Positions 1-33,981 of a stretch of DNA of 64,000 nt are shown one piece after another. Below the pieces are notes generated by a model. It saw nothing but the letters and a program-made list of their open reading frames with translations, was not told the origin of the DNA and made no database searches. The DNA comes from Dehalococcoidia bacterium (lineage in GTDB: Bacteria; Chloroflexota; Dehalococcoidia; Bin125): NCBI GenBank assembly GCA_965209205.1, contig CBDBQC010000003.1, forward strand, positions 822,882 to 886,881, in the 5' to 3' direction. The translations under genes were made by a program, and so were the position numbers. Numbering within the stretch: position 1 is the stretch's first letter; each line of letters starts with the position of its first letter.

Positions 1-753
1 ATGACCGTCTGCAACATGACCATCGAGGGCGGCGCCCGGGCCGGCCTCGTCGCGCCCGACGAGACGACCTTCGACTACCTCCGCGGCCGCCCGCACGCCC
101 CCGCGGGCGACGCCTGGGACGAGGCGCTGGCGGCCTGGCGGCAACTGCCCAGCGACCCCGGCGCCCGCTTCGACCGCGAGGTCGTGCTCGATGGGTCCGC
201 CATCGACCCGCACGTCACCTGGGGCGTGACGCCCGCGCAGAGCGTGGGCGTGGGCGGGCAGGTGCCGGACCCGGCCGAGATCGACGATCGCGCCGCCCGC
301 GAGACGGCGGAGCGCGCCCTGCGCTACATGGACCTGGCGCCCGCGACCCGCATCGTGGACATCAACCTCGACCGCGTCTTCATCGGCTCCTGCACCAACG
401 CTCGCATCGAGGACCTGCGCGCGGCCGCGCAGGTGATCGAGGGCAAGACGGTCGCCGGCGGCGTGAACGCGATGGTCGTGCCGGGCTCGGGGCTCGTCAA
501 AGCGCAGGCCGAGCAGGAGGGCTTGGCCGACGTCTTCCGCGACGCCGGCTTCGAGTGGCGCGAGGCCGGCTGCTCGATGTGCCTGGGCATGAACCCCGAC
601 ATCCTCGCCCCCGGCGAGCGCTGCGCCTCGACCAGCAACCGCAACTTCGAGGGGCGCCAGGGGCCGGGCGGTCGCACCCACCTCGTCAGCCCGGCGATGG
701 CCGCCGCCGCCGCCGTCGCCGGCCACTTCGTCGACGTGCGGGACTGGAGCTAG
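1..753 (+). CDS. leuC: 3-isopropylmalate dehydratase large subunit (5' part lies outside the window)
   Basis: Aconitase-family motifs [24 protein letters not shown] and [12 protein letters not shown]; leuD and leuB lie downstream. Confidence 0.96.
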
Positions 754-768
754 CGATTCGGAGCTTCG

Positions 769-984
769 ATGCCGGGGCTTCGGAATGTCAAACAGGAGGA
801 GGCCGTCCGGGCGTTCGTTCGCTTGGGTGGCCGAGAGCGGGCGTCGAAGAAGAACTACCGGATGGTGACGATGCCGAACGGAGCGTTGATCGCGATCCCC
901 ACCGGTACACTCAAGATCGGTCTGCTGCATCGGCTCATTCGCCGCGCTGGGGCAACCGCACAGGAGTTCGAGGAGGTGTTGTGA
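769..984 (+). CDS. hicA: HicA-like toxin (type II TA), canonical GSH His apparently absent
   Basis: 71-aa basic ORF with a HicA-like layout (EAVRAFVRLG...IAIP...GLLHRLIRRAG); its stop overlaps the hicB start (TGATG). Confidence 0.7.
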   Translation: MPGLRNVKQEEAVRAFVRLGGRERASKKNYRMVTMPNGALIAIPTGTLKIGLLHRLIRRAGATAQEFEEVL

Positions 985-1238
985 TGGTGGCTCCCGAGGC
1001 GCCCGTCTACACGATCTCGGTCTATGAGGCCGAGGAGGGCGGCTACTGGGCGGAAGTCCTCGACCTGCCGGGTTGCGTCGCGCAGGCCGAGACGCTCGAC
1101 GCCCTGCGGGCGCAGCTGCCCGACGCCATCGCCGCCTACATCGAGACGAAACGGGAGCTCGGCGAGGAGCCCGAGCCCGCCAGCGCCTTCACCTGGTCCC
1201 TCCGCGTCGAGGGCAGCGGCCTGGCGCCGGTGAGTTAG
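984..1238 (+). CDS. hicB: HicB-family antitoxin
   Basis: EEGGYWAEVLDLPGCVAQAETLDAL...DAIAAY is the typical HicB N-terminal fold; ATG at 984 is in the frame of ORF 555..1238. Confidence 0.82.
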   Translation: MVAPEAPVYTISVYEAEEGGYWAEVLDLPGCVAQAETLDALRAQLPDAIAAYIETKRELGEEPEPASAFTWSLRVEGSGLAPVS

Positions 1239-1245
1239 GAGCAGC

Positions 1246-1839
1246 ATGCAACCCGTCACGACCGTCAGCGGCCACGCCATCCCGCTCGACCGCGCCGACA
1301 TCGACACCGATCAGATCATCCCCGCCCGCCACCTCAAGAAGATCGAGCGCACCGGCTACGGCCCCTTCGCCTTCGAGAGTTGGCGCAAGGACCCGGACTT
1401 CGTCGTCAACCGGCCCGAGTACGCCGGCGCCCCCATCCTCCTGGCCGGCCCGAACTTCGGCGGCGGCTCCTCGCGCGAGCACGCCGTCTGGGCGATCCAG
1501 CAGATGGGCGTGGGCGTGGTCATCGCGCCCTCCTTCGCCGACATCTTCCGCAACAACAGCGCCAAGATGGGGCTGCTCACCGTGACGCTGTCCCCGCCCG
1601 ACTGCGAACACCTCATGGCGCGCGCGGCCGAGACGCCGTCCGCCCCCATCACCGTGGACCTGGCGGCGCAGACCGTCTCGACGCCCGGCGGCTGGTCGCG
1701 CGGCTTCGAGATCGACGCCTTCGTCAAGCACACGCTGCTCAACGGGCTCGACGGCATCGACCTGACGCTGCAGCACGTCGACGCGATCACCGCCTTCGAG
1801 CGGGAGCGTCCCGCCTTCATGCCCCGCACCAGCGCCTGA
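1246..1839 (+). CDS. leuD: 3-isopropylmalate dehydratase small subunit
   Basis: [25 protein letters not shown] and SFADIFRNN motifs; AGGAG RBS. Confidence 0.96.
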
Positions 1840-1861: not shown

Positions 1862-2953
1862 GTGAGCCACTTCAATATCGCGCTGCTGCCCGGCGACGGC
1901 ATCGGACCGGAGGTGGTCGCCGAGGGCGTGAAGGTGCTCGACGCCGTGGGCGCGCGCTTCGGGCACGAGTTCAGCTACACCGCCGACATCGTGGGCGGCG
2001 CCGCCATCGACGACTACGGCGTCGCCCTGCGCGATGAGACGCTGGAGATGTGCCAGGAGCAGGATGCGGTCTTCTTCGGCGCCGTCGGCGGCCCCAAGTG
2101 GGACGACCCCGGCGCCAGCGTCCGCCCCGAGCAGGCCATCCTGGGGCTGCGCAAGGGCCTGGGTCTGTTCGCCAACATCCGCCCCGTGAAGATGTACGAC
2201 TTCCTCGTCGACAGCACGGCCCTCAAGCCCGAGGTCGTGCGCGGCGTGGACATGATCGTCCTGCGCGAGCTGACCGGCGGCATCTACTTCGGCCAGCCGC
2301 AGAAGCAGTGGGTGGAGAACGGCGAGCGCCATGTCGTCGATACGCTGGCCTACGCCGAGCACGAGATCGAGCGCATCGTGCGCGTCGGCTTCGAGCTGGC
2401 GCAGGGGCGGCGCAAGAAGCTGACCTCGGTCGACAAAGCGAACGTGATGGCCAGCTCCCGGCTGTGGCGCGCGGTCGTGCTGGAGGTCGCGCCCGACTAC
2501 CCCGACGTCGAGGTCGAGCACCTGCTCGTCGACGCCTGCACCATGCACCTGATCTCGCGCCCCGGCGACTTCGACGTCATCGTCGCCGAGAACCTGTTCG
2601 GCGACATCCTCAGCGACGAGGCCTCGATGCTGGCAGGCTCGATGGGCATGCTGCCCAGCGCCAGCCTGGGCCTGCGCAGCCGCGACGGCACCGGCCTGGG
2701 CATGTACGAGCCGATTCACGGCACCGCGCCCGATATCCAGGGCCGCGGCATCGCCAACCCCATCGCCCAGATCCTCAGCGGCGCGATGATGCTGCGCCTC
2801 TCGCTGGGCCTGGAGGCCGAGGCCGCCGCTGTCGAGGCGGCCGTCGACGGCGTGCTCGCCGCCGGCCACCGCCCCGCCGACCTCGCCGGCCCCGACGACC
2901 GCCCGAAGGACACCGCCGCCATGGGCGACCTCATCGTCGCGGCGCTGGCCTGA
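1862..2953 (+). CDS. leuB: 3-isopropylmalate dehydrogenase
   Basis: [33 protein letters not shown] and [11 protein letters not shown] motifs; GTG start after GGAGG. Confidence 0.96.
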
Positions 2954-2954
2954 C

Positions 2955-3110
2955 GGGGGCGCTCCGCTCCGACCTCACCCCCTGACTTCGGATATGACGG
3001 CGTGCGGTCGCGCGCCTGGGGCTCTCCATCTGGACGCTGGAGAGGGGGGACCGGAGGGGAACCTCACCCCTAGCCCCCTCTCCAGCTAAAGCGCTGGAGA
3101 GCCCCCGCCC
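2955..3110. repeat. Cluster of dispersed palindromic repeats (ACCTCACCCC...CCCCTCTCCA-loop-TGGAGAGGGG family)
   Basis: Hairpins at about 3022-3048 and 3061-3101; 2971-3050 is a near-exact inverted copy of about 33900-33980. Confidence 0.85.
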
Positions 3111-3335
3111 CGGGGGAGGGGGCTGCCGCGACGACGCCGATCGCCGCCGGCGCCCGGCACGCGCCCGGTGCGTGCACGATCTTGCACTCATATGCACGAA
3201 TTCAGCGGGTTGGGCTGGGAGTGACCGAGGAGTGGGACCGCGGTGGGCACGGACGGCGCACCGGTACACCCGCGGTCCGCGGGTCTCCATCGCAGTATAG
3301 CGGATGCTTGGCGACGTGGCCAGGCGGCGGCCGGA

Positions 3336-3482
3336 TCTCACCCCTTCACCCCCCTCTCCAGCGAAAGCGCTGGAGAGGGGGCTCGGGTCCCCTCTCCCCA
3401 GGGGAGAGGGGATCCGACCACATCCCTCCGGTCCCCCCTCTCCATCGCTTCAGATGGAGAGGGGGTTAGGGGGTGAGGTTCC
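3336..3482. repeat. Cluster of dispersed palindromic repeats upstream of SBP gene 1
   Basis: Three hairpins: CCCCTCTCCA..TGGAGAGGGG twice and TCCCCTCTCCCC-A-GGGGAGAGGGGA; 3435-3482 is an essentially exact inverted copy of about 33784-33831. Confidence 0.88.
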
Positions 3483-3554
3483 CCCGCGATCGCACGCCGG
3501 ACCCCCTGAGTGACACCGGGGGCCTTCCCACGGCGCCCGAATCCGAAAACTCCG

Positions 3555-3719
3555 GTGGATAACTGGCAAGTACCGTGGATAACCCCATAATTTCCTTCTT
3601 ACTTGACATAGGGGGGGGGGGGGGGGGGGGCTCGATTCTGGATGTGACATACTGCGTGTGCTCACCAGCCCGACGGTCCCCCGGGGGGACCAACGGTAGT
3701 TCCCGGAAAGGAACCGATC
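3555..3719 (+). promoter_or_regulatory. Conserved SBP promoter/leader, copy 1: GTGGATAAC x2, TTGACA, G20 tract, extended -10, two UTR hairpins
   Basis: GTGGATAAC at 3555 and 3575; TTGACA 3603-3608; G 3611-3630; TGaCATACT with CATACT at 3648-3653; the same layout recurs at 31103-31264. Confidence 0.7.
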
Positions 3720-6122
3720 ATGAGCACACCGAAGCATTGGACGACCCTGCGACAGCGAAAGATCTCGCGCCGCACCATGTTGGGAGCCAGCGCCAAAGCC
3801 GGCGTTGGAGCCGCCGGGCTGGCGCTCGTCGGCTGCGGCGACGACGACGAGCCCGACGCCGGGGCCGTGGCGGCGGAACGGGCCGCCTCGGCCGCGGAGG
3901 AGGCCGCCGCCGCGGCCATCGCCGCCGGCGAGGCGCGCGCGGCTGAGACTGAGGCTGCCGCGGACGCCGCCGCTGAGGCGGCTGCCGCCGCGTCCGAGGC
4001 CTCCGCCGCGGCTTCACAGGCGGCCGACGCGGCCGATGCGGCCGCCGCCCTGGCCGCCGAGGCGGCGGAGTCGGAGGACGCCGCCAACGCGGCCGCCGCC
4101 GCCGAAGCCGCGGCCGCGGCTGCTGCGGACGCTGCCGACGCCGCGTCCGCAGCTGGCGACGCCGCGGCCGCTGCCGTGGCGGACGCCGCCGCGCAGGCCG
4201 CTGAGGCCGCCGCCCAAGCCGCGCGCGACGCGGCCGCCGCGGTCGAGGCCGGTACCGCCACCGCCGCCGCAGCGCAGGCCGCCATCGACGGGGCCGCGGC
4301 CGCCGCGGCTGCCGCGGCCGAAGCCGCCGGGGAGGCGTCCGCGGCCGCCGGCGAGGCCGCCGCCACCGCGCAGGAGACCGCCGAAGCCGCGGCCGAGACC
4401 GCGGCCGCGGCCGTCGCCGCCGCCCAGGAGGCCGCCGAGGCGGCCGGGGAGGCCGCCAGCGCGGCTGCGGCCGCCGTCGAGGCCGGCATGGCCATGGCCG
4501 AGGACGCCGAGTTCTCGGTGCCCTGGCCGCTCGACCAGGTCGATCTGAACGCCACGATCGTCGTCGCGCACGACGCCGACGCCGGCGGCCTGGATCCGCG
4601 CAGCAGCGCCAGCTTCGCCAACGACTGGGCCGATGCCGCCGTCTTCAGCGCGGCCCTCCAACTGGATCCCCGCGATAACTCCGCGGCCGACCATCTCGCC
4701 GCGCCTGAGTGGATCGACCCCGCCACGATCCGGGCGGCGGTTGCCCTGGCGCCGTTCCACGACGGCTCGATCCTCACCGCCCACGACATGGCGTTCAGCC
4801 ACGACCGTGTGGCCGGACGCGCCGCCTATCACGACGGCGGCGCGACGACCGATCACCCCAGCGGCTGGGCCCCCGCGAACGCCTGGGCGATGGCGAACGT
4901 CGCCGGGAACGAGGCCGTGGACGATCGCACCTGGGCGATCGATCTCGTCACGCCGAATTTGGGCTTCCTCGCCGTCAGTCTGACCGCGGTCAGCAATACG
5001 TCAGTCATGTCGCGGGCGGACACGGAGCGGCGCGGCGACACCGCGGTGGACCAATCCTTGATGGGCACGGGCCCCTACCGCTTCGTCAGCCACACGGACG
5101 ACGAGGACTTCGTCTTCGAGCGCTTTGAGGACCACTTCCTCCCGATCGACCACCCCGTCCGGGTGCCGCACTACGCCCACAACCAACACCTGACCGTCCT
5201 GGTGCGCCCCGAGCTCCAGTCGCGTCTCGCCGGCCTCGAGGCCGGCGAGATCGACGCCGTGCCGGCCCTGGGCCCCACCGTCGTCGAGCCGTTCCTGGAC
5301 GACCCCGACTTCACCGTCCAGTTCGCCCCCTCCCTCTCGACGGCCATCCACAACCTCTATCCCAACTTGTGGACCCCGACGATGGACGACGGCAGCCCCA
5401 ACCCGTTCCTGGACGTCCGCGTCCGCCGGGCCGCGAACCACGCGATCAACCGCCAGTCCCTGATCGACAACCTCATGGCGGGCGTGGGGGGGCAGGCCTT
5501 CGTCGCGCACAGCAGCACCGAGGGCTTCCCGACGCCGGAGCAGTTGCAGGAAGTCACCTACGCCTACGACCCCGAGCGGGCGAGGCAACTCCTGGCCGAG
5601 GCGGGCTACCCGGACGGCTTCGATACCCCCCTGTACTGGACGCCCGATGTTGGCGGCCCGTCCGCGCCGGACATGGCGCTGGCCGTCGCGCAGGATCTGA
5701 CGGCGGTCGGCATCCGGATCGAGTCCGTGTCGCTCCCCAGCAGCGACTACTTCACCGACGAGTACATGCGCGGCAAAGAAGACGCCAAGCCGGGGCTGTG
5801 GTGGTTCTGGGGCAGCCCCATCCCCGACATCTCCCAGCCGTGGGAGTGTTGCGCCGGGCCGCGTGGCGATTGGGCGATCGCGGCGCCGCCGGACCCCGAC
5901 ATGGACGAGATGTACCTCGCGCAGTCCGTCGAACTCGATCGCGCGCGGCGCCTGGAGATGATCACTGAGTTCATCCTGGAGCACGCGCGGCGCGCGTACT
6001 ACGTCTTCCTCATCGAGCCGCCGGAAGCCGTCATGACCCGCAGCAACGTCAACTGGCCCAAGGGCGGGCCCTTCGGCCTCGTGGACTACACAAGCTCCTT
6101 CGCCATGCAGAAGCGCATCTGA
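3720..6122 (+). CDS. Tat lipoprotein with Ala-rich stalk and family-5 (peptide/nickel-type) ABC solute-binding domain, paralogue 1
   Basis: SRRTML Tat motif; LVGC lipobox (Cys39); about 210 aa Ala/Glu/Asp-rich segment; SBP_bac_5-like motifs FHDGS.LTAHD, GTGPYRF, DVRVRRAANHAINR and YDPERARQLLAEAGYPDGF. Confidence 0.9.
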   Translation: MSTPKHWTTLRQRKISRRTMLGASAKAGVGAAGLALVGCGDDDEPDAGAVAAERAASAAEEAAAAAIAAGEARAAETEAAADAAAEAAAAASEASAAASQAADAADAAAALAAEAAESEDAANAAAAAEAAAAAAADAADAASAAGDAAAAAVADAAAQAAEAAAQAARDAAAAVEAGTATAAAAQAAIDGAAAAAAAAAEAAGEASAAAGEAAATAQETAEAAAETAAAAVAAAQEAAEAAGEAASAAAAAVEAGMAMAEDAEFSVPWPLDQVDLNATIVVAHDADAGGLDPRSSASFANDWADAAVFSAALQLDPRDNSAADHLAAPEWIDPATIRAAVALAPFHDGSILTAHDMAFSHDRVAGRAAYHDGGATTDHPSGWAPANAWAMANVAGNEAVDDRTWAIDLVTPNLGFLAVSLTAVSNTSVMSRADTERRGDTAVDQSLMGTGPYRFVSHTDDEDFVFERFEDHFLPIDHPVRVPHYAHNQHLTVLVRPELQSRLAGLEAGEIDAVPALGPTVVEPFLDDPDFTVQFAPSLSTAIHNLYPNLWTPTMDDGSPNPFLDVRVRRAANHAINRQSLIDNLMAGVGGQAFVAHSSTEGFPTPEQLQEVTYAYDPERARQLLAEAGYPDGFDTPLYWTPDVGGPSAPDMALAVAQDLTAVGIRIESVSLPSSDYFTDEYMRGKEDAKPGLWWFWGSPIPDISQPWECCAGPRGDWAIAAPPDPDMDEMYLAQSVELDRARRLEMITEFILEHARRAYYVFLIEPPEAVMTRSNVNWPKGGPFGLVDYTSSFAMQKRI

Positions 6123-6130
6123 GGCGCGGG

Positions 6131-6217
6131 AACCTCACACCCTGCGCCAGGACCTCACCCCCGAACCCCCTCTCCAGCTGAAGCGCTGGAGAGGGGGCTC
6201 CGATCCCCTCTCCCCCA
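6131..6217. repeat. Palindromic repeat cluster downstream of SBP gene 1, interrupted by IS5
   Basis: ACCTCACCCCCGAACCCCCTCTCCAGCTGAAGCGCTGGAGAGGGGGCTCCGATCCCCTCTCCCCC is a direct copy of the 3336-3415 unit. Confidence 0.85.
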
Positions 6218-7386
6218 GGAGACCTTTGCGTAACTCCCCGGAAGCGGCAGAGTAAGTGGCGGGGGGACGGCAGCGGGAGGGCCGCATGTACCGCCAGACC
6301 GGGGAGCTCACGTTCGCGGACGCGATGATGGCCGAGGGGATGGGCCGCAACGCGGTGCTCGAACGGCTCGACGCCGCGCTCGACTGGGAGCGCATCGCCA
6401 CGATCGTCGGGGAGGTGCATGCGGCGCCGGAGGGCCGGCCCGCCTACCCGCCGCTGTCGATGCTCCGGATCATGCTCCTGCAGCAGTGGTTCGACGCCTC
6501 GGACCCGGCCATCGAAGAGGCGCTGCGCGACCGCATCTCGTTCCGCCGCTTCGCCCGGCTCGGCTGGGACGACGGCACCCCGGACCACTCGACGATCAGC
6601 CGCTTCCGCCACCAGCTCACCGGGCGCGGCCTCGCCGAGCGCGTGTTCGACGAAATCGCCCGCCAGCTCGACGCGCGGGGGCTGCTCGTCAAGGAGGGCA
6701 CGCTCCTGGACGCCACCCTCGTCGAGGCGGCGGTGCGGCGCCCGCCGTACGGGCGCGGCCCCGGCGCGCGCAGTGCGACCGACCCCGACGCCGCGTGGAC
6801 CCGCAAGGGCGGCCGCGCCGCCTTCGGCTACAAGGCGCACCTCGCGATGGACGGGGGCTCCGGCCTGATCCGCCGGGCGCTGCTGACGCCGGCGAACGTG
6901 AACGACACCGAGGTCGCCGACCGCTTGGTGAGCGGCGACGAGGCGGCGGTCTACGCCGACAAGGCGTACGAGTCGAAGGACCGGCGCGCGCGACTGCGGG
7001 CGCAGGGGGTCAAGGACCGGATCATGCACCGCGCGCACAAACACCAGCGGGCGCTGCCGCACTGGCAGCGGCGGCGCAACGCGCTGATCTCGCGGGTGCG
7101 GGCGCCGGTCGAGCAGGTCTTCGGGACGCTGAAGCGCAGCTACGGCTACCGGCGGGTGCGCTACACCGGCCTCGATCGCAACGCGACCGAGCTCTGGCTC
7201 AAGCTCTCGGCCTACAACCTGCGCCGCGCCGAACGCCTCCTCGCCGCGGCGTAGGCGCCGTGCGCCCGCCGCCCGCCGGCGCTCCGTAAGCGCCGCCCGT
7301 AACCGCCCACTCCCGCCTTCCCCGCGCCCCGATCCGCCCGGACGCCGCCCTTTTTCGCGCCCACCCCGAGTAACGCAAAGGTCTCC
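6218..7386 (+). mobile_element. IS5-family insertion sequence (1169 bp)
   Basis: 19-bp terminal inverted repeats GGAGACCTTTGCGTAACTC (6218-6236) and GAGTAACGCAAAGGTCTCC (7368-7386), one mismatch, enclosing an intact DDE transposase; no clear target duplication seen. Confidence 0.93.
6286..7254 (+). CDS. IS5-family DDE transposase
   Basis: GRPAYPPLSMLRIMLLQQWF, PDHSTISRFR, LLDATLV, DPDAAW..KG...FGYKAH, VYADKAY and RAPVEQVFGTLK motifs; ATG after GGGAGG. Confidence 0.94.
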   Translation: MYRQTGELTFADAMMAEGMGRNAVLERLDAALDWERIATIVGEVHAAPEGRPAYPPLSMLRIMLLQQWFDASDPAIEEALRDRISFRRFARLGWDDGTPDHSTISRFRHQLTGRGLAERVFDEIARQLDARGLLVKEGTLLDATLVEAAVRRPPYGRGPGARSATDPDAAWTRKGGRAAFGYKAHLAMDGGSGLIRRALLTPANVNDTEVADRLVSGDEAAVYADKAYESKDRRARLRAQGVKDRIMHRAHKHQRALPHWQRRRNALISRVRAPVEQVFGTLKRSYGYRRVRYTGLDRNATELWLKLSAYNLRRAERLLAAA

Positions 7387-7450
7387 AAAGGGGGAGAGGG
7401 GATCGGATTCGCTCTCTCGTTCTGGGAGAGGGCCTTCTGGGAGAGGGTGA
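7387..7450. repeat. Right arm of the palindrome split by IS5, plus degenerate GGGAGAGGG units
   Basis: GGGGGAGAGGGGATCGG (about 7390-7406) is the reverse complement of CCGATCCCCTCTCCCCC immediately left of the IS. Confidence 0.85.
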
Positions 7451-7482
7451 AGGGCCCAGCGCCCCCGCCCCGCCGCGCCACG

Positions 7483-7511
7483 TTGCCGCCACGCCCGGCG
7501 CTCAGTACGGT
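7483..7511 (+). promoter_or_regulatory. Candidate sigma70 promoter for cimA
   Basis: TTGCCG (7483-7488), 17-bp spacer, TACGGT (7506-7511). Confidence 0.5.
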
Positions 7512-7542
7512 GAGCGTGGACCAGGAAGCGAGGCGACGCCCC

Positions 7543-7614
7543 ATGCCCGCGACGCCAACCCCGACGGGAGCCCCAGCCGCCGCGATCGTCGCGGCGGTGA
7601 CGATTGCGTCCTGA
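7543..7614 (+). CDS. Candidate attenuator leader peptide MPATPTPTGAPAAAIVAAVTIAS
   Basis: 23 codons with clustered Ile/Val/Thr codons, purine-rich RBS, an overlapping hairpin, located in the cimA leader. Confidence 0.4.
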   Translation: MPATPTPTGAPAAAIVAAVTIAS

Positions 7615-7726
7615 GCGGCGCTCGCCCCCGCGACCCCCGCACGGGTTCGCTCCCTCGCGTCCGCCCCCACCCCCGATCCCCCCGGCCCGCGCCGCCGACG
7701 GCGGCGCACGGCGCTTGGAGCGCGAC

Positions 7727-9369
<1,643 letters not shown>

Positions 9370-9373
<4 letters not shown>

Positions 9374-28678: not shown

Positions 28679-28696
28679 CCGGCCGCCGCCGCGTCC

Positions 28697-29749
28697 CTAG
28701 TTGCCGTTGATGATGTCCTGCATCGCCTTCGGCATGCGGTCGATGCGGTCGCCCAGGCCGGCCACCTGGAGCCGGTGGTGGTACTCCGTGAGCTGCTTGC
28801 GCTGCACGAGTTGCTGCAAGCGCCAGCCCTCGTCGAGTTGCGCCGGCGAGGCGCCGCCGCCCAGCAGGACCGTCAGGGATTCCACCAGCAGCGGATCCTG
28901 GGTGCTCGCCGGGCCCTGGATGCGGTCGGCGCGGTCGAGGTAGGAGTGGATCTCCTCGCGCCGCTCGGGCTCGCTCTCCAGGATGTGCTTGAGGTGCATC
29001 ACGCCGAAGGCCAGGTGCCGCGACTCGTCCTGCGCGCAGAGCCGGAAGATCGTCTTCTCGGCCGTGTTCTGGCCGATCAACTCGCCCATGCGGAAGAGCG
29101 ACTGCACGACGCCCTCCCCCTGCACGTGCAGGACGGCCGACATCTCCGAGAAGTCGCGCGCCTCGAGGACCAGGCGCAGGCCGTCGCCCAGCCCCTGCTG
29201 GAGCAGCCCGCCGCCGTTGACCAGCGCCCGCTTGCGGAAGACGTCCAGGTGGCGGGCCTCGTCCATGATCTGCGTCATCAGGAACAGGCCCACCTCGTAG
29301 TACTCCGGCGAGAGCCGCGGCAGCCATTGCCCGGGGACGTCGGCGGCGATGAACTCGACCTCGTTGAGGATGGTGCAGAACTGGCACATCGCCCGCTCGA
29401 CGTCGTCGGGCAGCGGCTCGACGGTGTCCCAGGGGATGTCCGTCGCCGAGGACCACTGCCGCTGGACGGCCTCCTCGTAGAGCATCGGCACCGCTTCCGA
29501 CCAGCTCTCCGCCTTGCCCACGTAGGCGTAGCCGAAGCGCGGCGCGCCCTCGCGCGCGGCCGTCCCGCGCAGGCGCATCGTGTGGTTGCCGGCCTGCGGG
29601 GCGTCGGGCGGGAAGGCGGCCTCGTTCATGCCGTCCAGCGTCATCCCGCGGCGGCCGGGCGTGGCGTGTGTGTCGAACTGTTCGTCCAGGTTCAGCCAGG
29701 ACAGGTCGAGGGGCTGGGTGGGGGCGTCGCTGGGGGTCTGGGTCGTCAT
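28697..29749 (-). CDS. Ferritin-like diiron protein, tandem copy 1
   Basis: Four-helix ligand pattern E(VE)...DEARH...EG...DESRH; WSSATDIPW; ATG after GGAG. Confidence 0.8.
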   Translation of the reverse strand: MTTQTPSDAPTQPLDLSWLNLDEQFDTHATPGRRGMTLDGMNEAAFPPDAPQAGNHTMRLRGTAAREGAPRFGYAYVGKAESWSEAVPMLYEEAVQRQWSSATDIPWDTVEPLPDDVERAMCQFCTILNEVEFIAADVPGQWLPRLSPEYYEVGLFLMTQIMDEARHLDVFRKRALVNGGGLLQQGLGDGLRLVLEARDFSEMSAVLHVQGEGVVQSLFRMGELIGQNTAEKTIFRLCAQDESRHLAFGVMHLKHILESEPERREEIHSYLDRADRIQGPASTQDPLLVESLTVLLGGGASPAQLDEGWRLQQLVQRKQLTEYHHRLQVAGLGDRIDRMPKAMQDIINGN

Positions 29750-29846
29750 CGTCGGTCTCCGTCCACTCCCGCGATCATACCCCATTGCGCCGCTGGTCTG
29801 CGACATCCCGCAGGAGACACGGTCGGGCAGGCGATCGGCCGCGTCC

Positions 29847-30899
29847 CTAGTTGCCGTTGATGATGTCCTGCATCGCCTTCGGCATGCGGTCGATGCGGTC
29901 GCCCAGGCCGGCCACTTGGAGCCGGTGGTGGTACTCCGTGAGCTGCTTGCGCTGCACGAGTTGCTGCAAGCGCCAGCCCTCGTCGAGCTGCGCCGGCGAG
30001 GCGCCGCCGCCCAGCAGGACCGTCAGGGACTCCACCACCAGCGGATCCTCCGTGCTCGCCGGGCCCTGGACGCGGTCGGCGCGGTCGAAGTAGGAGTGGA
30101 TCTCCTCGCGCCGCTCGGGCTCGCTCTCCAGGATGTGCTTGAGGTGCATCACGCCGAAGGCCAGGTGCCGCGACTCGTCCTGCGCGCAGAGCCGGAAGAT
30201 CGTCTTCTCGGCCGTGTTCTGCCCGATCAACTCGCCCATGCGGAAGAGCGACTGCACGACGCCCTCCCCCTGCACGTGCATGAGGGCCGACATCTCCGTG
30301 AAGTCGCGCGCATCGAGGGCCAGGCGCAGGCCGTCGCCCGGCCCCTGCTGGAGCAGCCCGCCGCCGTTGACCAGCGCCCGCTTGCGGAAGACGTCCAGGT
30401 GGCGGGCCTCGTCCATGATCTGGGTCATCAGGAACAGGCCCACCTCGTAGTACTCCGGCGAGAGCCGCGGCAGCCATTGCGCGGGGACGTCGGCGGCGAT
30501 GAACTCGACCTCGTTGAGGAAGGTGCAGAACTGGCACATCGCCCGCTCGACGTCGTCGGGCAGCGGCTCGATGGTGTCCCAGGGGATGTCCGTCGCCGAG
30601 GACCACTGCCGCTGGACGGCCTCCTCGTAGAGCATCGGCACCGCTTCCGACCAGCTCTCCGCCTTGCCCACGTAGGCGTAGCCGAAGCGCGGCGCGCCCT
30701 CGCGCGCGGCCGTCCCGCGCAGGCGCATCGTGTGGTTGCCGGCCTGCGGGGCGTCGGGCGGGAAGGCGGCCTCGTTCATGCCGTCCAGCGTCATCCCGCG
30801 GCGGCCGGGCGTGGCCTGTGTGTCGAACTGGTCGTCCAGGTTCAGCCAGGACAGATCGAGGGGCTGGGTGGGGGCGTCGCTGGGGGTCTGGGTCGTCAT
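29847..30899 (-). CDS. Ferritin-like diiron protein, tandem copy 2
   Basis: Same motifs; about 98% nucleotide identity to copy 1 by manual count. Confidence 0.8.
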   Translation of the reverse strand: MTTQTPSDAPTQPLDLSWLNLDDQFDTQATPGRRGMTLDGMNEAAFPPDAPQAGNHTMRLRGTAAREGAPRFGYAYVGKAESWSEAVPMLYEEAVQRQWSSATDIPWDTIEPLPDDVERAMCQFCTFLNEVEFIAADVPAQWLPRLSPEYYEVGLFLMTQIMDEARHLDVFRKRALVNGGGLLQQGPGDGLRLALDARDFTEMSALMHVQGEGVVQSLFRMGELIGQNTAEKTIFRLCAQDESRHLAFGVMHLKHILESEPERREEIHSYFDRADRVQGPASTEDPLVVESLTVLLGGGASPAQLDEGWRLQQLVQRKQLTEYHHRLQVAGLGDRIDRMPKAMQDIINGN

Positions 30900-30986
30900 C
30901 GTCGGTCTCCGTCCGCTCCCGCGATCATACGCCATTGCGCCGCTGGCATGCGACATCCCGCAGGAGACACGGTCGGGCGGGCGCTC

Positions 30987-31027
30987 GACCGCACGCCGTC
31001 ATGTCCGCAGCGAGGGGGTGCGGTTCC
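30987..31027 (+). repeat. Repeat-family fragment at the left edge of SBP module 2
   Basis: 34/41 identical, in direct orientation, to 33941-33981 on the far side of the gene. Confidence 0.8.
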
Positions 31028-31101
31028 CCCGCGCGATCGCACGCCGGACCCCCTCAAGTGACCCTGTAGGGCGTCCCACGGCGCCCGAATCGGAAGAATC
31101 C

Positions 31102-31264
31102 TGTGGATAACTTTGCAAATACCGTGGATAACCACCTAATTTCCTTCTTCCTTGACATAGGGGGGGGGGGGGGGTGTCTCTATTGGATGTGTCATACTGC
31201 GCGTGCTCACCAGCCCGACGGTCCCCCGGGGGGACCAACGGTAGTTCCGCGAAAGGAACCGATC
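31102..31264 (+). promoter_or_regulatory. Conserved SBP promoter/leader, copy 2: GTGGATAAC x2, TTGACA, G15 tract, extended -10, two UTR hairpins
   Basis: TGTGGATAA at 31102-31110; GTGGATAAC at 31124; TTGACA 31152-31157; G 31160-31174; TGtCATACT with CATACT at 31193-31198. Confidence 0.7.
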
Positions 31265-33694
31265 ATGAGCATGCCGAAGTATTGGACGACCCTGCGACAG
31301 CGAAAGATCTCGCGTCGCACCATGTTGGGAGCCAGCGCGAAGGCTGGCGTTGGAGCGGCCGGCCTCGCCCTGGTCGGCTGCGGCGACGACGACGGGCCTG
31401 ACGCCGGGACCGCGGCGGCCGAACGGGCCGCCTCGGCCGCGGAGGAGGCCGCCGCCGCGGCCATCGCCGCCGGGGAGGCGCGCGCCGCCGAGACCGAGGC
31501 CGCCGCGGACGCCGCCGCTGAGGCGGCTGCCGCCGCGTCGGAGGCCTCCGCCGCGGCTTCCCAGGCGGCCGACGCGGCCGATGCGGCCGCCGCCCTGGCC
31601 GCCGAGGCGGCCGAGTCGGAGGACGCCGCCAACGCGGCCGCCGCCGCGGAAGCCGCCGCCGCGGCTGCCGCCGACGCGGCCGCCGCCGCATCCGCGGCCG
31701 GCGATCAGGCTGCCGCGGCCGTCGCCGCTGCCGCCGCCGAGGCGGCCGAGGCCGCCGCCCAGGCCGCCCGCGACGCGGCCGCGGCCGTCGAGGCCGGCAC
31801 CGCCACCGCCGCCGCCGCCCAGGCCGCGATCGACGAGGCCGCCGCTGCGGCGGCTGCCGCGGCCGAAGCCGCCGGCGAGGCGTCCGCCGCCGCCGGGCAG
31901 GCCGCCGCCACCGCACAGGAGACCGCCGAAGCCGCGGCCGAGACCGCCGCTGCGGCGGTCGCCGCGGCCGAAGAGGCCGCCGATGCGGCCCGCGAGGCCG
32001 CCGACGCCGTTGAGCAGACGAGGAACGTCGCCGCCTCCTTGACCGCCGAGGCCGAGTTCGTGGAGTGGAGCGTGCCCTGGCCGATCGACGAGATCGACCT
32101 GGACGCCACGATCACCTTCGCTATCCCCGCCGACACGGGGGGCCTGGATCCGCAACGGGTCGGCAGTGATTCGAACTTCACCTCGCACTCGGCCGTCCAC
32201 GACAGCCTCGTGGAGATCTCGCCCCTGACCAAGGATCTGCTCCCGCATCTCGCCACGCTGGAGTGGGCCGACGAGGGCGCCACGTGCATCGGCACCGTCA
32301 ACGGGGCGATGTTCCACGACGGCTCCATGCTCACCGCCCACGACTTGGTCTTCACCTACGACCGCATGGGCGGCGTCGCCGAATACCACCAGGGCGGCGA
32401 GACGAGCGACCACCCGGCCGGCTGGCAATCCGTGCGGCCGATTTGGGGGGCCTCTTACTGGCTCCGCAACGAGGCGGTCGACGACACCACCTGGGTGATC
32501 GAGCTGCCGGACTTCGACGCGAGCCTCTGGGGCACCATCGGCATCGCCCCCAATGTGATGGTCATGTCCCAGGCGGACGTCGAGCGGCGCGGCGATCACG
32601 CGGTGGATAACCACCCGATCGGCACGGGGCCCTTCCGCTTCGTCAGCCACACCGACGAAGAGGACTTCGTCTTCGAGCGCTTCGAGGACCACTTCAATCC
32701 GGTCGACCACCCCATCCGGGTGCCGCACTACCCCCACCACAAGGACCTGATCGCTCTGGTGCGCCCCGAGTTGCAGTCGCGCATCGCCGGCATCGAAGCG
32801 GGCGAGATCGACGCGGCCGCGGAGTTGGGCGTCAACGCCGTCGCGCCGTTCCTCGACGACCCCGACTTCACGGTCCAGTTCGTCCCCGGGCTGGGGTGGG
32901 CGCTGCACAACATCTACCCCAACCTCTGGAGGGAGACGCGGGACGACGGCACGCCCAACCCGTGGATGGACGAGCGCGTCCGCATCGCCGCGAACCTGTC
33001 CATCAACCGCGCGGCCATCGCCGAAGGCCTGCTGCTGGGCGCGCCGCCGATCGAGCCCATGTATGGGTTCCGCGGCGTCGTGGGCTACCCCAGCGAGGAG
33101 GACGCGCGGGCGGCGGACTGGGGCTACGACCCCGATCGGGCGCGGGCGCTGCTCGCGGAGGCCGGCTACCCGGACGGCTTCGACGAGACGCTGTACTACA
33201 CGACCGACTGGGGCGGCGACCTCCAGGAAGACCTCGCGCTGACCACGGCGCAGATGCTGACCGCGGCCGGCATCCGGACCACCCCCGTCTTGCTCCCCGG
33301 AGGCGAGTACTTCACCGACGCCTACGCCCGCGGCGGTCCGACGGGGACCGCTCCCGTCGGGCTCTATTGGTGGTGGGCGAACAACCAGGCGGACGCCGGC
33401 GTGATGTGGACCTGCTGCGCCAACTCCGAGGGCTTCTTCACCATGGCGATCCATGGCGACCCGGTCCTCGACGAGCTCTTCTCGCAGAGCAAGGTCGAGC
33501 GCGATCCCGAGCGGCGCAACGAGCTCACCTCGGAGTTGTTCCTGCGGCACAAGCGGGGCGCCTGGTTCATCAACGTCATCGAGCCGCCGGACGGCGTGCT
33601 CACCCGCGGCGACGTCAACTGGCCGGTGGGTGGACCCTTCGGCGGGCTCAGCTTCCTCAACACGTACTCCATCCAGAAGCGCCGGGCCACCTAA
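31265..33694 (+). CDS. Tat lipoprotein with Ala-rich stalk and family-5 ABC solute-binding domain, paralogue 2
   Basis: Same Tat motif, lipobox and stalk as 3720-6122; FHDGSMLTAHD, GTGPFRF and YDPDRARALLAEAGYPDGF motifs. Confidence 0.9.
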   Translation: MSMPKYWTTLRQRKISRRTMLGASAKAGVGAAGLALVGCGDDDGPDAGTAAAERAASAAEEAAAAAIAAGEARAAETEAAADAAAEAAAAASEASAAASQAADAADAAAALAAEAAESEDAANAAAAAEAAAAAAADAAAAASAAGDQAAAAVAAAAAEAAEAAAQAARDAAAAVEAGTATAAAAQAAIDEAAAAAAAAAEAAGEASAAAGQAAATAQETAEAAAETAAAAVAAAEEAADAAREAADAVEQTRNVAASLTAEAEFVEWSVPWPIDEIDLDATITFAIPADTGGLDPQRVGSDSNFTSHSAVHDSLVEISPLTKDLLPHLATLEWADEGATCIGTVNGAMFHDGSMLTAHDLVFTYDRMGGVAEYHQGGETSDHPAGWQSVRPIWGASYWLRNEAVDDTTWVIELPDFDASLWGTIGIAPNVMVMSQADVERRGDHAVDNHPIGTGPFRFVSHTDEEDFVFERFEDHFNPVDHPIRVPHYPHHKDLIALVRPELQSRIAGIEAGEIDAAAELGVNAVAPFLDDPDFTVQFVPGLGWALHNIYPNLWRETRDDGTPNPWMDERVRIAANLSINRAAIAEGLLLGAPPIEPMYGFRGVVGYPSEEDARAADWGYDPDRARALLAEAGYPDGFDETLYYTTDWGGDLQEDLALTTAQMLTAAGIRTTPVLLPGGEYFTDAYARGGPTGTAPVGLYWWWANNQADAGVMWTCCANSEGFFTMAIHGDPVLDELFSQSKVERDPERRNELTSELFLRHKRGAWFINVIEPPDGVLTRGDVNWPVGGPFGGLSFLNTYSIQKRRAT

Positions 33695-33726: not shown

Positions 33727-33981
33727 AACCCCACCCCCTGCCCCCCTCTCCATCCAAAAGCATGGAGAGGGGGAACGGAGGGGGAACCTCACCCCCTAAC
33801 CCCCTCTCCATCTGAAGCGATGGAGAGGGGGAAGCGGAAGGGGAGTAGAGCGGAGCGCCGACCCCGGGGCGCTCCGCTCTACTCCCAAGTCCTCCGATCC
33901 CCCCTCTCCATTGCTCTGCAATGGAGAGCCCCAGGCGCGCGACCGCACGCCGTCATATCTGAGGTTAGGGGGTGAGGTTCC
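33727..33981. repeat. Mosaic of palindromic repeats downstream of SBP gene 2
   Basis: Three CCCCTCTCCA-loop-TGGAGAG hairpins plus a perfect 19-bp stem GGGAGTAGAGCGGAGCGCC (33841-33859) / GGCGCTCCGCTCTACTCCC (33868-33886). Confidence 0.9.

Follow-up and report, generated by a model that had tools for sequence, protein, structure and literature searches.

The leuB-cimA region analysed here, positions 2955-7478 of a 64-kb window (the whole stretch of DNA under study, from an uncultured Dehalococcoidia lineage), holds a gene for a substrate-binding protein (SBP1) with its own promoter region, together designated module 1. We lean towards regarding this region as one recombination-prone slot of a genus-wide arrangement, in which SBP genes would be exchanged without a transposase by way of a 5' module and a 3' repeat. 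A second cassette of the same kind (module 2, with SBP2) lies further along the window. A preliminary description of this stretch had reported that both modules are bracketed by direct copies of a palindromic repeat and had proposed that these repeats let the promoter-plus-SBP cassette amplify and move. The genome under study (G000; 2.71 Mb in 4 contigs, 72% GC, 89% complete) has its closest public records under the name "MAG: Dehalococcoidia bacterium", and all of the genomes compared are metagenome-assembled genomes (MAGs). G001, G002, G003, G004 and G006 belong to the same genus as G000, G001 being a sister species, and G015 to another genus. The most detailed view of exchange comes from a five-way alignment; the in-depth comparison was made with G001, which is assembled as a single 2.8-Mb contig. 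Gene identities were taken from Pfam and TIGR profile matches. Position numbers without a contig prefix refer to the window, and those of the style "C2:302.3 kb" are contig coordinates of G000.

The flanking genes were confirmed to be leuB and cimA on the same strand (TIGR00169, 481 bits; TIGR00977, 632.7 bits), and module 1 does split them, as had been stated, relative to G003 (leuB 88-89% identical) and G015, in which the two genes are separated by a repeat-free spacer of about 190 nucleotides (nt). The other congeners have different fillings. G004 holds an SBP2-like gene, and G001 a chimeric gene that is SBP2-like and then SBP1. The heads of the genes in G006 and G002 are about 45% and 41% identical, respectively, to any paralogue of G000 and are followed by permease genes; in G002, cimA was not found within 13.5 kb. 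The slot content thus differs among G000, G001, G004 and G006, in a comparison made without matched unit-free control sites. Homology to the relatives stops at 2953-2984 in all of them and resumes at 7465-7480 in G001, G003, G004 and G006, at the putative -35 element of the conserved leader that belongs to cimA itself. Therefore, the insertion lies upstream of the control region of cimA, and no regulatory unit is cut. Module 2 is also an insertion, relative to G005 and G006, where its site is empty and repeat-free; the site has another filling in G001 and is rearranged in G002 and G004. In G001, at least five of the cassettes examined stand in conserved slots with a non-orthologous occupant (L047, L053, L055, L059, L061a, L031), and about ten lie at breaks of synteny with G000.

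The repeats around the two modules are built from short hairpin units. The commoner one, designated the A-type unit, is AACCTCACCCCC-TAA-CCCCCTCTCCA-loop-TGGAGAGGGGG. The other, hairpin B, is CCCTCTCCCCAGGGGAGAGGGTTAGGGTGAGGG and fits the TM_ECO consensus CCCTCNCCC N3-6 GGGNGAGGG N3 GGGNGAGGG, with TTA as the second loop; this consensus consists of a pyrimidine block, a loop, the complementary purine block, a 3-nt loop and a mirror-repeat purine block (PMC4666352). Exact matches to it number 17 in G000, 12 of them within 600 nt of genes of the SBP family. From their sequences, the repeats can be assigned to the known BoxC/PIT/TM triplex-motif class. The A-type unit keeps the hairpin-plus-mirror-block layout but has longer blocks (CCCCCTCTCCA / GGGGGTGAGG) and a 6-12-nt loop, and does not match the literal consensus. 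Its tail, CCTC(A)CCCCC, appears parallel-compatible with the purine arm GGAG(A)GGGGG, and the computed fold covers the hairpin part only. The units combine into doublets of the form tail-hairpinA-hairpinB-hairpinA-tail. The upstream doublet 3336-3482 folds with -57.2 kcal/mol (z = -8.3), its two tails pairing and closing three hairpins, and the hairpin of the downstream repeat 6126-6198 with -19.9 kcal/mol (z = -4.3). The paired inverted termini and a length under about 300 bp (147 bp for 3336-3482, about 190 bp for a doublet at C2:302.28-302.47 kb) are traits of miniature inverted-repeat transposable elements (MITEs). No clear target-site duplication was seen at one clean single-unit indel or on comparing module 2 with its empty counterparts in G005 and G006, where the flanks (about 85-90% identical) are too diverged to decide. 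A transposase with ends matching the units was not found, and the only insertion sequence (IS), of the IS5 family, has unrelated ends. The A units are intergenic, with 3 of 82 oriented units inside predicted genes. Small families occur alongside them, namely the X insert (eight X-variant units in G000), a GGGGCGGTTCGCGAACCGCCCC palindrome (Z) and a relic of a class-2 5' module at 3172-3333. The motif CGCGA[CT]CGCACGCCG forms the start of about 20 class-1 5' modules (3485-3501 and 31032-31048 in the window) and is also present in the X insert of 8 units (2991-3016, 33934-33959).

Both repeat pairs around the modules proved to be direct. In the first pair, 3336-3415 and 6152-6217 plus 7387-7407 share 71 of 89 aligned positions, the second composite being split by the IS5-family element at 6218-7386; in the second, 30987-31027 and 33941-33981 are identical at 34 of 41. 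The similarity between the modules starts within the repeat, at GGGGGTG.GGTTCCCCCGCG..ATCGCACGCCGGA, and the sequence common to the class-1 paralogues (n = 20) begins at CGCGATCGCACGCCGGA, immediately preceded in 16 of the 20 by a whole or partial tail GGGGGTGAGGTTCCCC. The direct bracketing holds for the left halves of the two doublets around module 1, but not for the gene-proximal units, which are inverted with their tails toward the gene (on the upstream side A< 3437-3478; on the downstream side the tail 6133-6141 with A> 6153-6194). The IS splits the downstream doublet, whose right half has decayed.

The repeats are not distributed at random. The oriented A-type units of G000 number 82; a stricter pattern counts 74, and its reversed control gives 0. 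For the enrichment analysis, genes were called with a crude GC3-based picker of open reading frames (ORFs; 1844 genes, 78% coverage), of which the stops are reliable and the starts are not. A unit in the same orientation within 80 nt after the stop codon was found in 17 of 28 family genes, as compared with 15 of 1816 other genes (61% and 0.8%; odds ratio 186, p = 1.3e-25), and several of these 15 are broken family genes. Downstream units of family genes had the same orientation as the gene in 17 cases and the opposite one in 1. Moreover, 40 of the 82 units are located no more than 600 nt from a family gene, although such flanks account for 1.4% of the genome and about 6% of the non-coding DNA. 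The hairpin units of the window are confined to 2969-3481, 6126-6217/7387-7403, 30980-31023 and 33729-33977, and all adjoin SBP1 or SBP2. That abundant repeats would flank any gene by chance was the objection foreseen in the preliminary description, and the genome does carry some 80-100 hairpin units in 2.7 Mb; the difference between family and other genes and the empty reversed control refute it, and we give it practically no weight. The units were also considered as markers of orphan SBP genes, but orphan and operon-linked genes showed only a weak trend (10/14 against 8/17 with a unit), and this idea was rejected.

The edges of exchanged DNA were located in the comparison with G001. The gene in its leuB slot is 95.9% identical to SBP2 of G000 over the window equivalent of 4420-5740, and then 99.7% identical (361/362) to SBP1 over 5760-6122, with the switch point inside the shared motif GAGTACTTCACCGAC. 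Past the stop codon and both tails (ACCTCACCCCC), the identity to G000 persists as far as about 6163, where it is lost between tail and hairpin. Tracts common to the two genomes have their 3' limit in the downstream repeat, at about 6144-6163. The SBP1 head is also found in G001 at 98.05% over 1642 nt, but in the slot held by C3_180280 in G000. In this copy the signal-peptide part is 90.7% identical and the promoter cannot be aligned, while the neighbouring core genes are 89.5-95.4% identical. Heads that are closer than the core genes and stand in different slots point to a recent transfer whose left boundary falls in the stalk and whose right boundary falls in the repeat tails; they suggest that heads were transferred between the lineages of G000 and G001. 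Because the identical head is in different slots, homology of the flanks alone is insufficient to explain the exchange. Other junctions were observed at the tails. At C1:171.6 kb, the G001 cassette starts exactly after a tail that is also present in G000, where a double-tail end typical of the 3' flank of one subfamily is retained. In the leuB slot of G001, a tail directly adjoins a 3' fragment (180 nt) of a cysN-like gene; in G000 the cysN-like gene lies upstream of the paralogue C3_905538, and the fragment marks a copied tract ending at a unit.

It had been predicted that an empty site would keep a single repeat. This was not the case at the leuB-cimA spacers of G003 and G015 or at the module 2 site of G005 and G006, all repeat-free, but such a site was found at C2:302.3 kb in G000. 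This site (C2:302.28-302.47 kb) is occupied in G000 by one doublet, in the order tail-hairpin, Z palindrome, hairpin-tail. The same site in G001 consists of a doublet, 7.5 kb with cassettes and another doublet, and in G004 of a double-tailed hairpin, 5 kb of cargo and a doublet. The geometry of direct doublets on both sides of the cargo matches that around module 1. One doublet opposite two is what deletion, or Campbell-type integration, leaves when direct doublets recombine. G006 was rejected as a clean pre-insertion state for C2:302 kb; it has unrelated genes there, without units.

The family itself comprises 31 SBP paralogues in G000 that share a near-identical signal peptide, and about 22 of them have a poly-G/C tract at the same promoter position. 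Most stand behind such a promoter, and the genes are putatively on/off switchable. Many are linked to ABC permeases. The class-1 5' module exists in about 22 copies that are 89-96% identical whatever the head, while the heads have a median amino-acid identity of 29% and a maximum of 88%. The values for the heads argue against recent copy-and-paste of whole promoter-plus-SBP modules. The 5' modules of G001 and G004 are only 80-92% identical to the copies in G000, or match just from the start codon on. The higher identity within G000 than to G001 and G004, together with the diverged heads, therefore indicates concerted evolution within each genome, by which the promoter and 5' part would evolve apart from the head. 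Thus, of the proposal that the repeats let cassettes amplify and move, the movement is upheld by cassettes in different slots in G001 and by insertions relative to other genomes, and recent amplification of whole modules is not. The repeats do mark edges of exchanged DNA, as seen from the enrichment and from tract ends in tails, and the suggested non-transposase route agrees with the lack of a transposase with matching ends, a RAYT gene or a DUF559 gene in G000.

Taken together, the arrangement would consist of about 30 genes for SBP_bac_5 lipoproteins with a twin-arginine translocation (Tat) signal, mostly behind poly-G/C promoters and framed by BoxC/PIT-class repeats in MITE-like doublets. 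The leuB-cimA slot would postdate the separation of the G003 lineage and have formed in the spacer that precedes the cimA leader, and its contents would later have been replaced, wholly or partly, by homologous recombination with family members within and between genomes. The 5' crossover would fall in the constant 5' module, the signal peptide or the Ala-rich stalk, and the 3' crossover in the downstream repeat tail or, on occasion, in a conserved motif of the coding sequence. Direct doublets on either side would allow deletion or integration of cargo, leaving a single doublet. The agent is presumably RecA-type recombination, and hairpin, cruciform or triplex structures may stimulate exchange or raise the frequency of breaks; the direction assigned to each event is what we infer. 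A more far-reaching version, in which the doublets are working recombination sites of a transposase-free exchange of contingency cassettes, with breaks made at the tails by cruciform or triplex structures or, in some genomes, by a DUF559 nuclease, and with heads and modules copied among about 30 slots and co-existing lineages, is tentative, and we doubt it more than we credit it.

The main rival to the recombination-slot reading is that the repeats are passengers, namely small mobile or indel-prone elements with a preference for sites just beyond the ends of these genes, such as gene-end hairpins or permissive, variable intergenic DNA. Shuffling of the SBP genes would then rely solely on long stretches of homology of their own (5' module, stalk and conserved head motifs), and the repeats would mark variable DNA without causing the exchange. 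This is a possible but not a favoured explanation. It accounts well for a lone A unit that is a clean 55-nt presence/absence difference within otherwise homologous class-2 upstream sequence, for unit numbers that range from 15 to 140 within the genus and are patchy across genera, for the many rearrangement junctions that lie in the 5' module and not in the repeat (L057, L063), and for the expansion of the SBP family in other genera without units. It meets difficulty at C2:302.3 kb, where the cargo ends share the doublet only and G000 retains exactly one copy, and at the tails, where heterogeneous DNA (a class-1 module, the cysN 3' fragment and six different gene 3' ends) begins at the same position. 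In addition, a 186-fold enrichment at one family is hard to obtain from target preference alone, as other genes with post-stop hairpins are spared. Several observations, some of them also in favour of passengers, weigh against recombination slots as such. The crossover of the chimera is in the coding sequence, outside the repeats; the virgin empty sites are repeat-free, and therefore the repeats were not a pre-existing target there; and the discrete lone unit fits independent insertion. Likewise, 11 of the 28 family genes have no downstream unit, the family is found in G008, G013 and G014 without A units and in other genera without these repeats or poly-G tracts, and tract ends at the tails are equally expected if units inserted independently with fixed termini of their own. 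The detailed comparison covers a few MAG assemblies, in which mis-joins at the repeated 5' modules could inflate the apparent shuffling, although the G001 assembly is one contig. Finally, PIT elements were inactive in E. coli in vivo assays, with neither promoter nor terminator activity, in earlier work as cited by PMC4666352.

Two other explanations appear unlikely. The units may be the cis ends of an enzyme-driven element, in which a small DUF559 (Vsr-like) nuclease encoded between inverted units makes breaks at the units, cassettes are copied to or from slots in a homing-like way as the breaks are repaired, and G000 has lost the enzyme. A DUF559 gene (PF04480, 144 bits) does lie inside the leuB-cimA slot of G006; as in the layout of the SBP cassettes, the BoxC-type units on its two sides are inverted and turn their tails toward it. 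Against this, neither the gene nor a fragment was found in G000 by PF04480 or by tblastn with the G006 protein, a genome that has 74-82 units and 31 cassettes, though at 89% completeness the absence is uncertain; target-site duplications or fixed cargo ends were not found, and cutting or binding of the units by the nuclease is hypothetical. Improbable to a similar degree is that the association is functional and kept by selection, the hairpins insulating the stochastic promoter from read-through (from leuB into SBP1 and from SBP1 into cimA) or stabilising the mRNA 3' end. Stable 13-bp GC stems that begin 7-50 nt after the stop codon in 17-20 of the 31 genes, units that separate leuB from the poly-G promoter and SBP1 from the cimA leader, and the orientation bias of the downstream units are in its favour. 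However, no T-run follows the hairpins, the inactivity of PIT elements in E. coli applies here as well, family genes followed by permeases also often carry a unit (8/17), and the single-versus-double doublet sites and tract ends are left unexplained. A functional role and a recombination role of the units are not mutually exclusive.

The recombination-slot reading has parallels in known systems. The BoxC/PIT/TM_ECO repeats (Bergler 1992; Hoyne and Maher 2000; Holder et al. 2015, PMC4666352) are likewise intergenic, often in inverted tandems, and located in DNA that varies between close relatives. TM loci are more rearranged among E. coli strains than control loci, and the motifs there have no link to gene function and no mobility genes (PMC4666352), whereas half of the units described here are beside one SBP family and bound exchanged tracts. 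The minimal mobile elements of Neisseria (Saunders and Snyder 2002; Snyder et al. 2004, PMC406496; cited in PMC1538595) are fixed sites between conserved genes that hold differing genes, have no mobility genes of their own and rely on homologous recombination. The leuB-cimA slot shares the trait of differing genes between the same flanking genes without mobility genes of their own. However, the neisserial elements exchange via the conserved flanking genes, and in our case one cassette is found in different slots, and therefore portable homologies (5' module and repeat units) must be used. The cargo here is one paralogous family. Correia repeat enclosed elements of Neisseria (PMC2649163, PMC3454330, PMC1797815) are also small inverted-repeat elements near contingency genes, strain-variable and at synteny breakpoints, but have no sequence relation to the units and show TA target duplication and promoter and IHF functions. 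REP/BIME/REPIN-RAYT systems resemble the units in being palindromic and intergenic, in forming inverted doublets and in the presence of an IS in a hairpin loop (3 of 3 copies). Some ISs are known to target REP elements. The units differ in having a triplex-type third block, and no Y1/RAYT gene was detected in G000 (PF01797; control genomes positive). A composite transposon was rejected, as the flanking doublets encode nothing and the sole IS5-family copy stands on one side and is absent from the G001 slot. Integron cassettes were also rejected, since every gene comes with a promoter of its own, the cassettes are scattered one by one, and no integrase lies beside modules 1 or 2 (a genome-wide search for intI was not made). 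Multi-copy lipoprotein genes with a near-identical 5' region, a homopolymer tract in the promoter and divergent downstream parts are known as the vlp genes of Mycoplasma hyorhinis. The SBP family shares this design of 5' region, promoter and downstream part with vlp. In contrast to the vlp genes, which occur in clusters and owe their variation to internal repeats, the genes here stand in scattered slots framed by repeats, vary in a folded SBP domain and are in many cases permease-linked.

The layout of the two modules is given in the table.

Table. Features of the leuB-cimA locus and of module 2 in the 64-kb window (A> and A<, forward and reverse A-type units; X<, reverse X insert)
Feature	Position	Strand	Description
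ORF upstream of leuD	3-1238		Atypical for leuC; Pfam: weak HicB-like matches only, residues 336-395
leuD	1246-1839		
leuB, 3-isopropylmalate dehydrogenase (left slot border)	1862-2953	+	Iso_dh 439 bits; TIGR00169 481 bits
Small-repeat block	2969-3482		Between leuB and SBP1 5' module
A-type triplex-hairpin unit, forward, X variant	2969-3050	+	Tail CCTCACCCC 2973-2981, X insert 2991-3016, hairpin 3021-3045; motif scan
A-type unit, forward	3059-3105	+	Tail and hairpin
Class-2 5' module relic, upstream part	3172-3333	+	Aligns with upstream of C2_54369, C3_309097, C3_905538, C4_240671
Upstream doublet	3336-3482		A> 3336-3378, hairpin B (BoxC/TM_ECO type) 3391-3409, A< 3437-3478
Class-1 5' module of SBP1	3483-3719	+	Edge motif CGCGATCGCACGCCGGA 3485-3501, two GTGGATAAC boxes, TTGACA 3603-3608, poly-G(20) 3611-3630, 5' untranslated region with hairpin, ribosome-binding site
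SBP1	3720-6122	+	Tat signal and lipobox, Ala-rich linker to ~4480, SBP_bac_5 head; PF00496 170 bits
Downstream repeat	6126-6198	+	Tail-only copy 6133-6141, A> unit 6153-6194
Hairpin B left arm	6205-6217		Cut by IS
IS5-family IS	6218-7386	+	Transposase 6256-7254; inverted repeats GGAGACCTTTGCGTAAC; DDE_Tnp_1, DUF772; NF033581 285 bits
Hairpin B right arm, then degenerate right half of downstream doublet	7387-7478		Right arm 7387-7403
cimA leader (right slot border)	7479-7614	+	TTGCCG..TACGGT; small ORF 7543-7614 MPATPTPTGAPAAAIVAAVTIAS
cimA, citramalate synthase	7604-9373	+	TIGR00977 632.7 bits, cut-off 450
Module 2 left edge	30980-31031	+	X< 30980-31005, reverse tail GGGGTGCGG 31015-31023, without hairpin
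Module 2	31032-33694	+	Class-1 5' module (edge 31032-31048, poly-G(15) 31160-31174), SBP2 31265-33694
Module 2 downstream block	33729-33981		A> 33729-33770, A> 33787-33828, central palindrome, hairpin 33903-33929, X< 33934-33959, reverse tail 33969-33977

The class-2 relic between leuB and the present class-1 module ends where the paralogue C2_319909 has an A unit inserted, as judged by indel comparison, and is probably the footprint of a former slot occupant. The IS5-family element has three copies in G000 that are 99.7-100% identical, every one in a hairpin-B loop, which suggests that it targets this loop specifically; the other copies are at C3:575991-577186 and C4:316174-317370. Missing from the leuB slot of G001, the copy in the window is a later passenger with no part in the cassette exchange. 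The left edge of module 2 (30980-31023) is a direct repeat of 33934-33977. A scan of the window with Rfam returned tRNA only, and the repeats match no curated RNA family.

The slot C3:893.5-895.4 kb holds an SBP cassette in G001 and, in G000, a non-SBP gene with a 26-nt homopolymer upstream (G26 on the + strand). This gene (C3:893.7-895.3 kb, minus strand) has a lower GC content and lies between triplex-hairpin units. Since it alternates with an SBP cassette in one slot, non-SBP contingency genes use the same slots. The leuB-cimA slot of G006 (L034) contains, in order, an SBP gene, the stranded 3' end of another SBP subfamily (..GYKGLWHNA*) with a tail, a gene for a TauD-like dioxygenase, the DUF559 gene between inverted BoxC units and two permease genes. 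At L066 (G001 C1:1420000-1432000), an orthologue of C3_123333 is beside a tyrosine-recombinase gene and a tRNA remnant; this locus may be an integrative element carrying a cassette, and it was rejected as an example of an empty site, as it is not collinear with G000. The G001 cassettes are repeatedly accompanied by a 0.7-kb sequence (C3:900025-900741), which was rejected as a mobility element, since it is part of an ordinary single-copy gene of lower GC content.

Among the neighbouring genes, the region of the 3-1238 ORF is the least conserved part of the leu cluster among the congeners (57-89%). The cimA leader is conserved in G001, G003, G004 and G006. Its ORF MPATPTPTGAPAAAIVAAVTIAS has 23 codons, with Ile, Val and Thr abundant near the end, and the promoter-like TTGCCG..TACGGT lies upstream; the leader may act as a leader-peptide attenuator of branched-chain amino acid genes. 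Two adjoining minus-strand ORFs of 369 amino acids, 28697-29806 and 29847-30956, lie immediately before module 2; they form a tandem duplication (97% identity over 300 nt; window 28688-30137) and have no Pfam match. Two copies of this ORF are also present in G004 and one in G001.

BoxC, PIT and TM repeats are widespread in bacteria, and a statistical link to variable loci of E. coli is all that has so far been established of their role. If the doublets do work as recombination sites, the BoxC/TM motifs, whose function has been open since the 1990s, would be portable recombination signals. Here, repeats of the BoxC class are tied to one definable cargo, a 31-member family of putatively phase-variable substrate-binding lipoproteins, and this offers a concrete system for asking whether such repeats stimulate recombination. 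For the uncultured Dehalococcoidia, the arrangement would mean that the nutrient-uptake repertoire is reshuffled without transposases, by on/off switching together with the swapping of heads.

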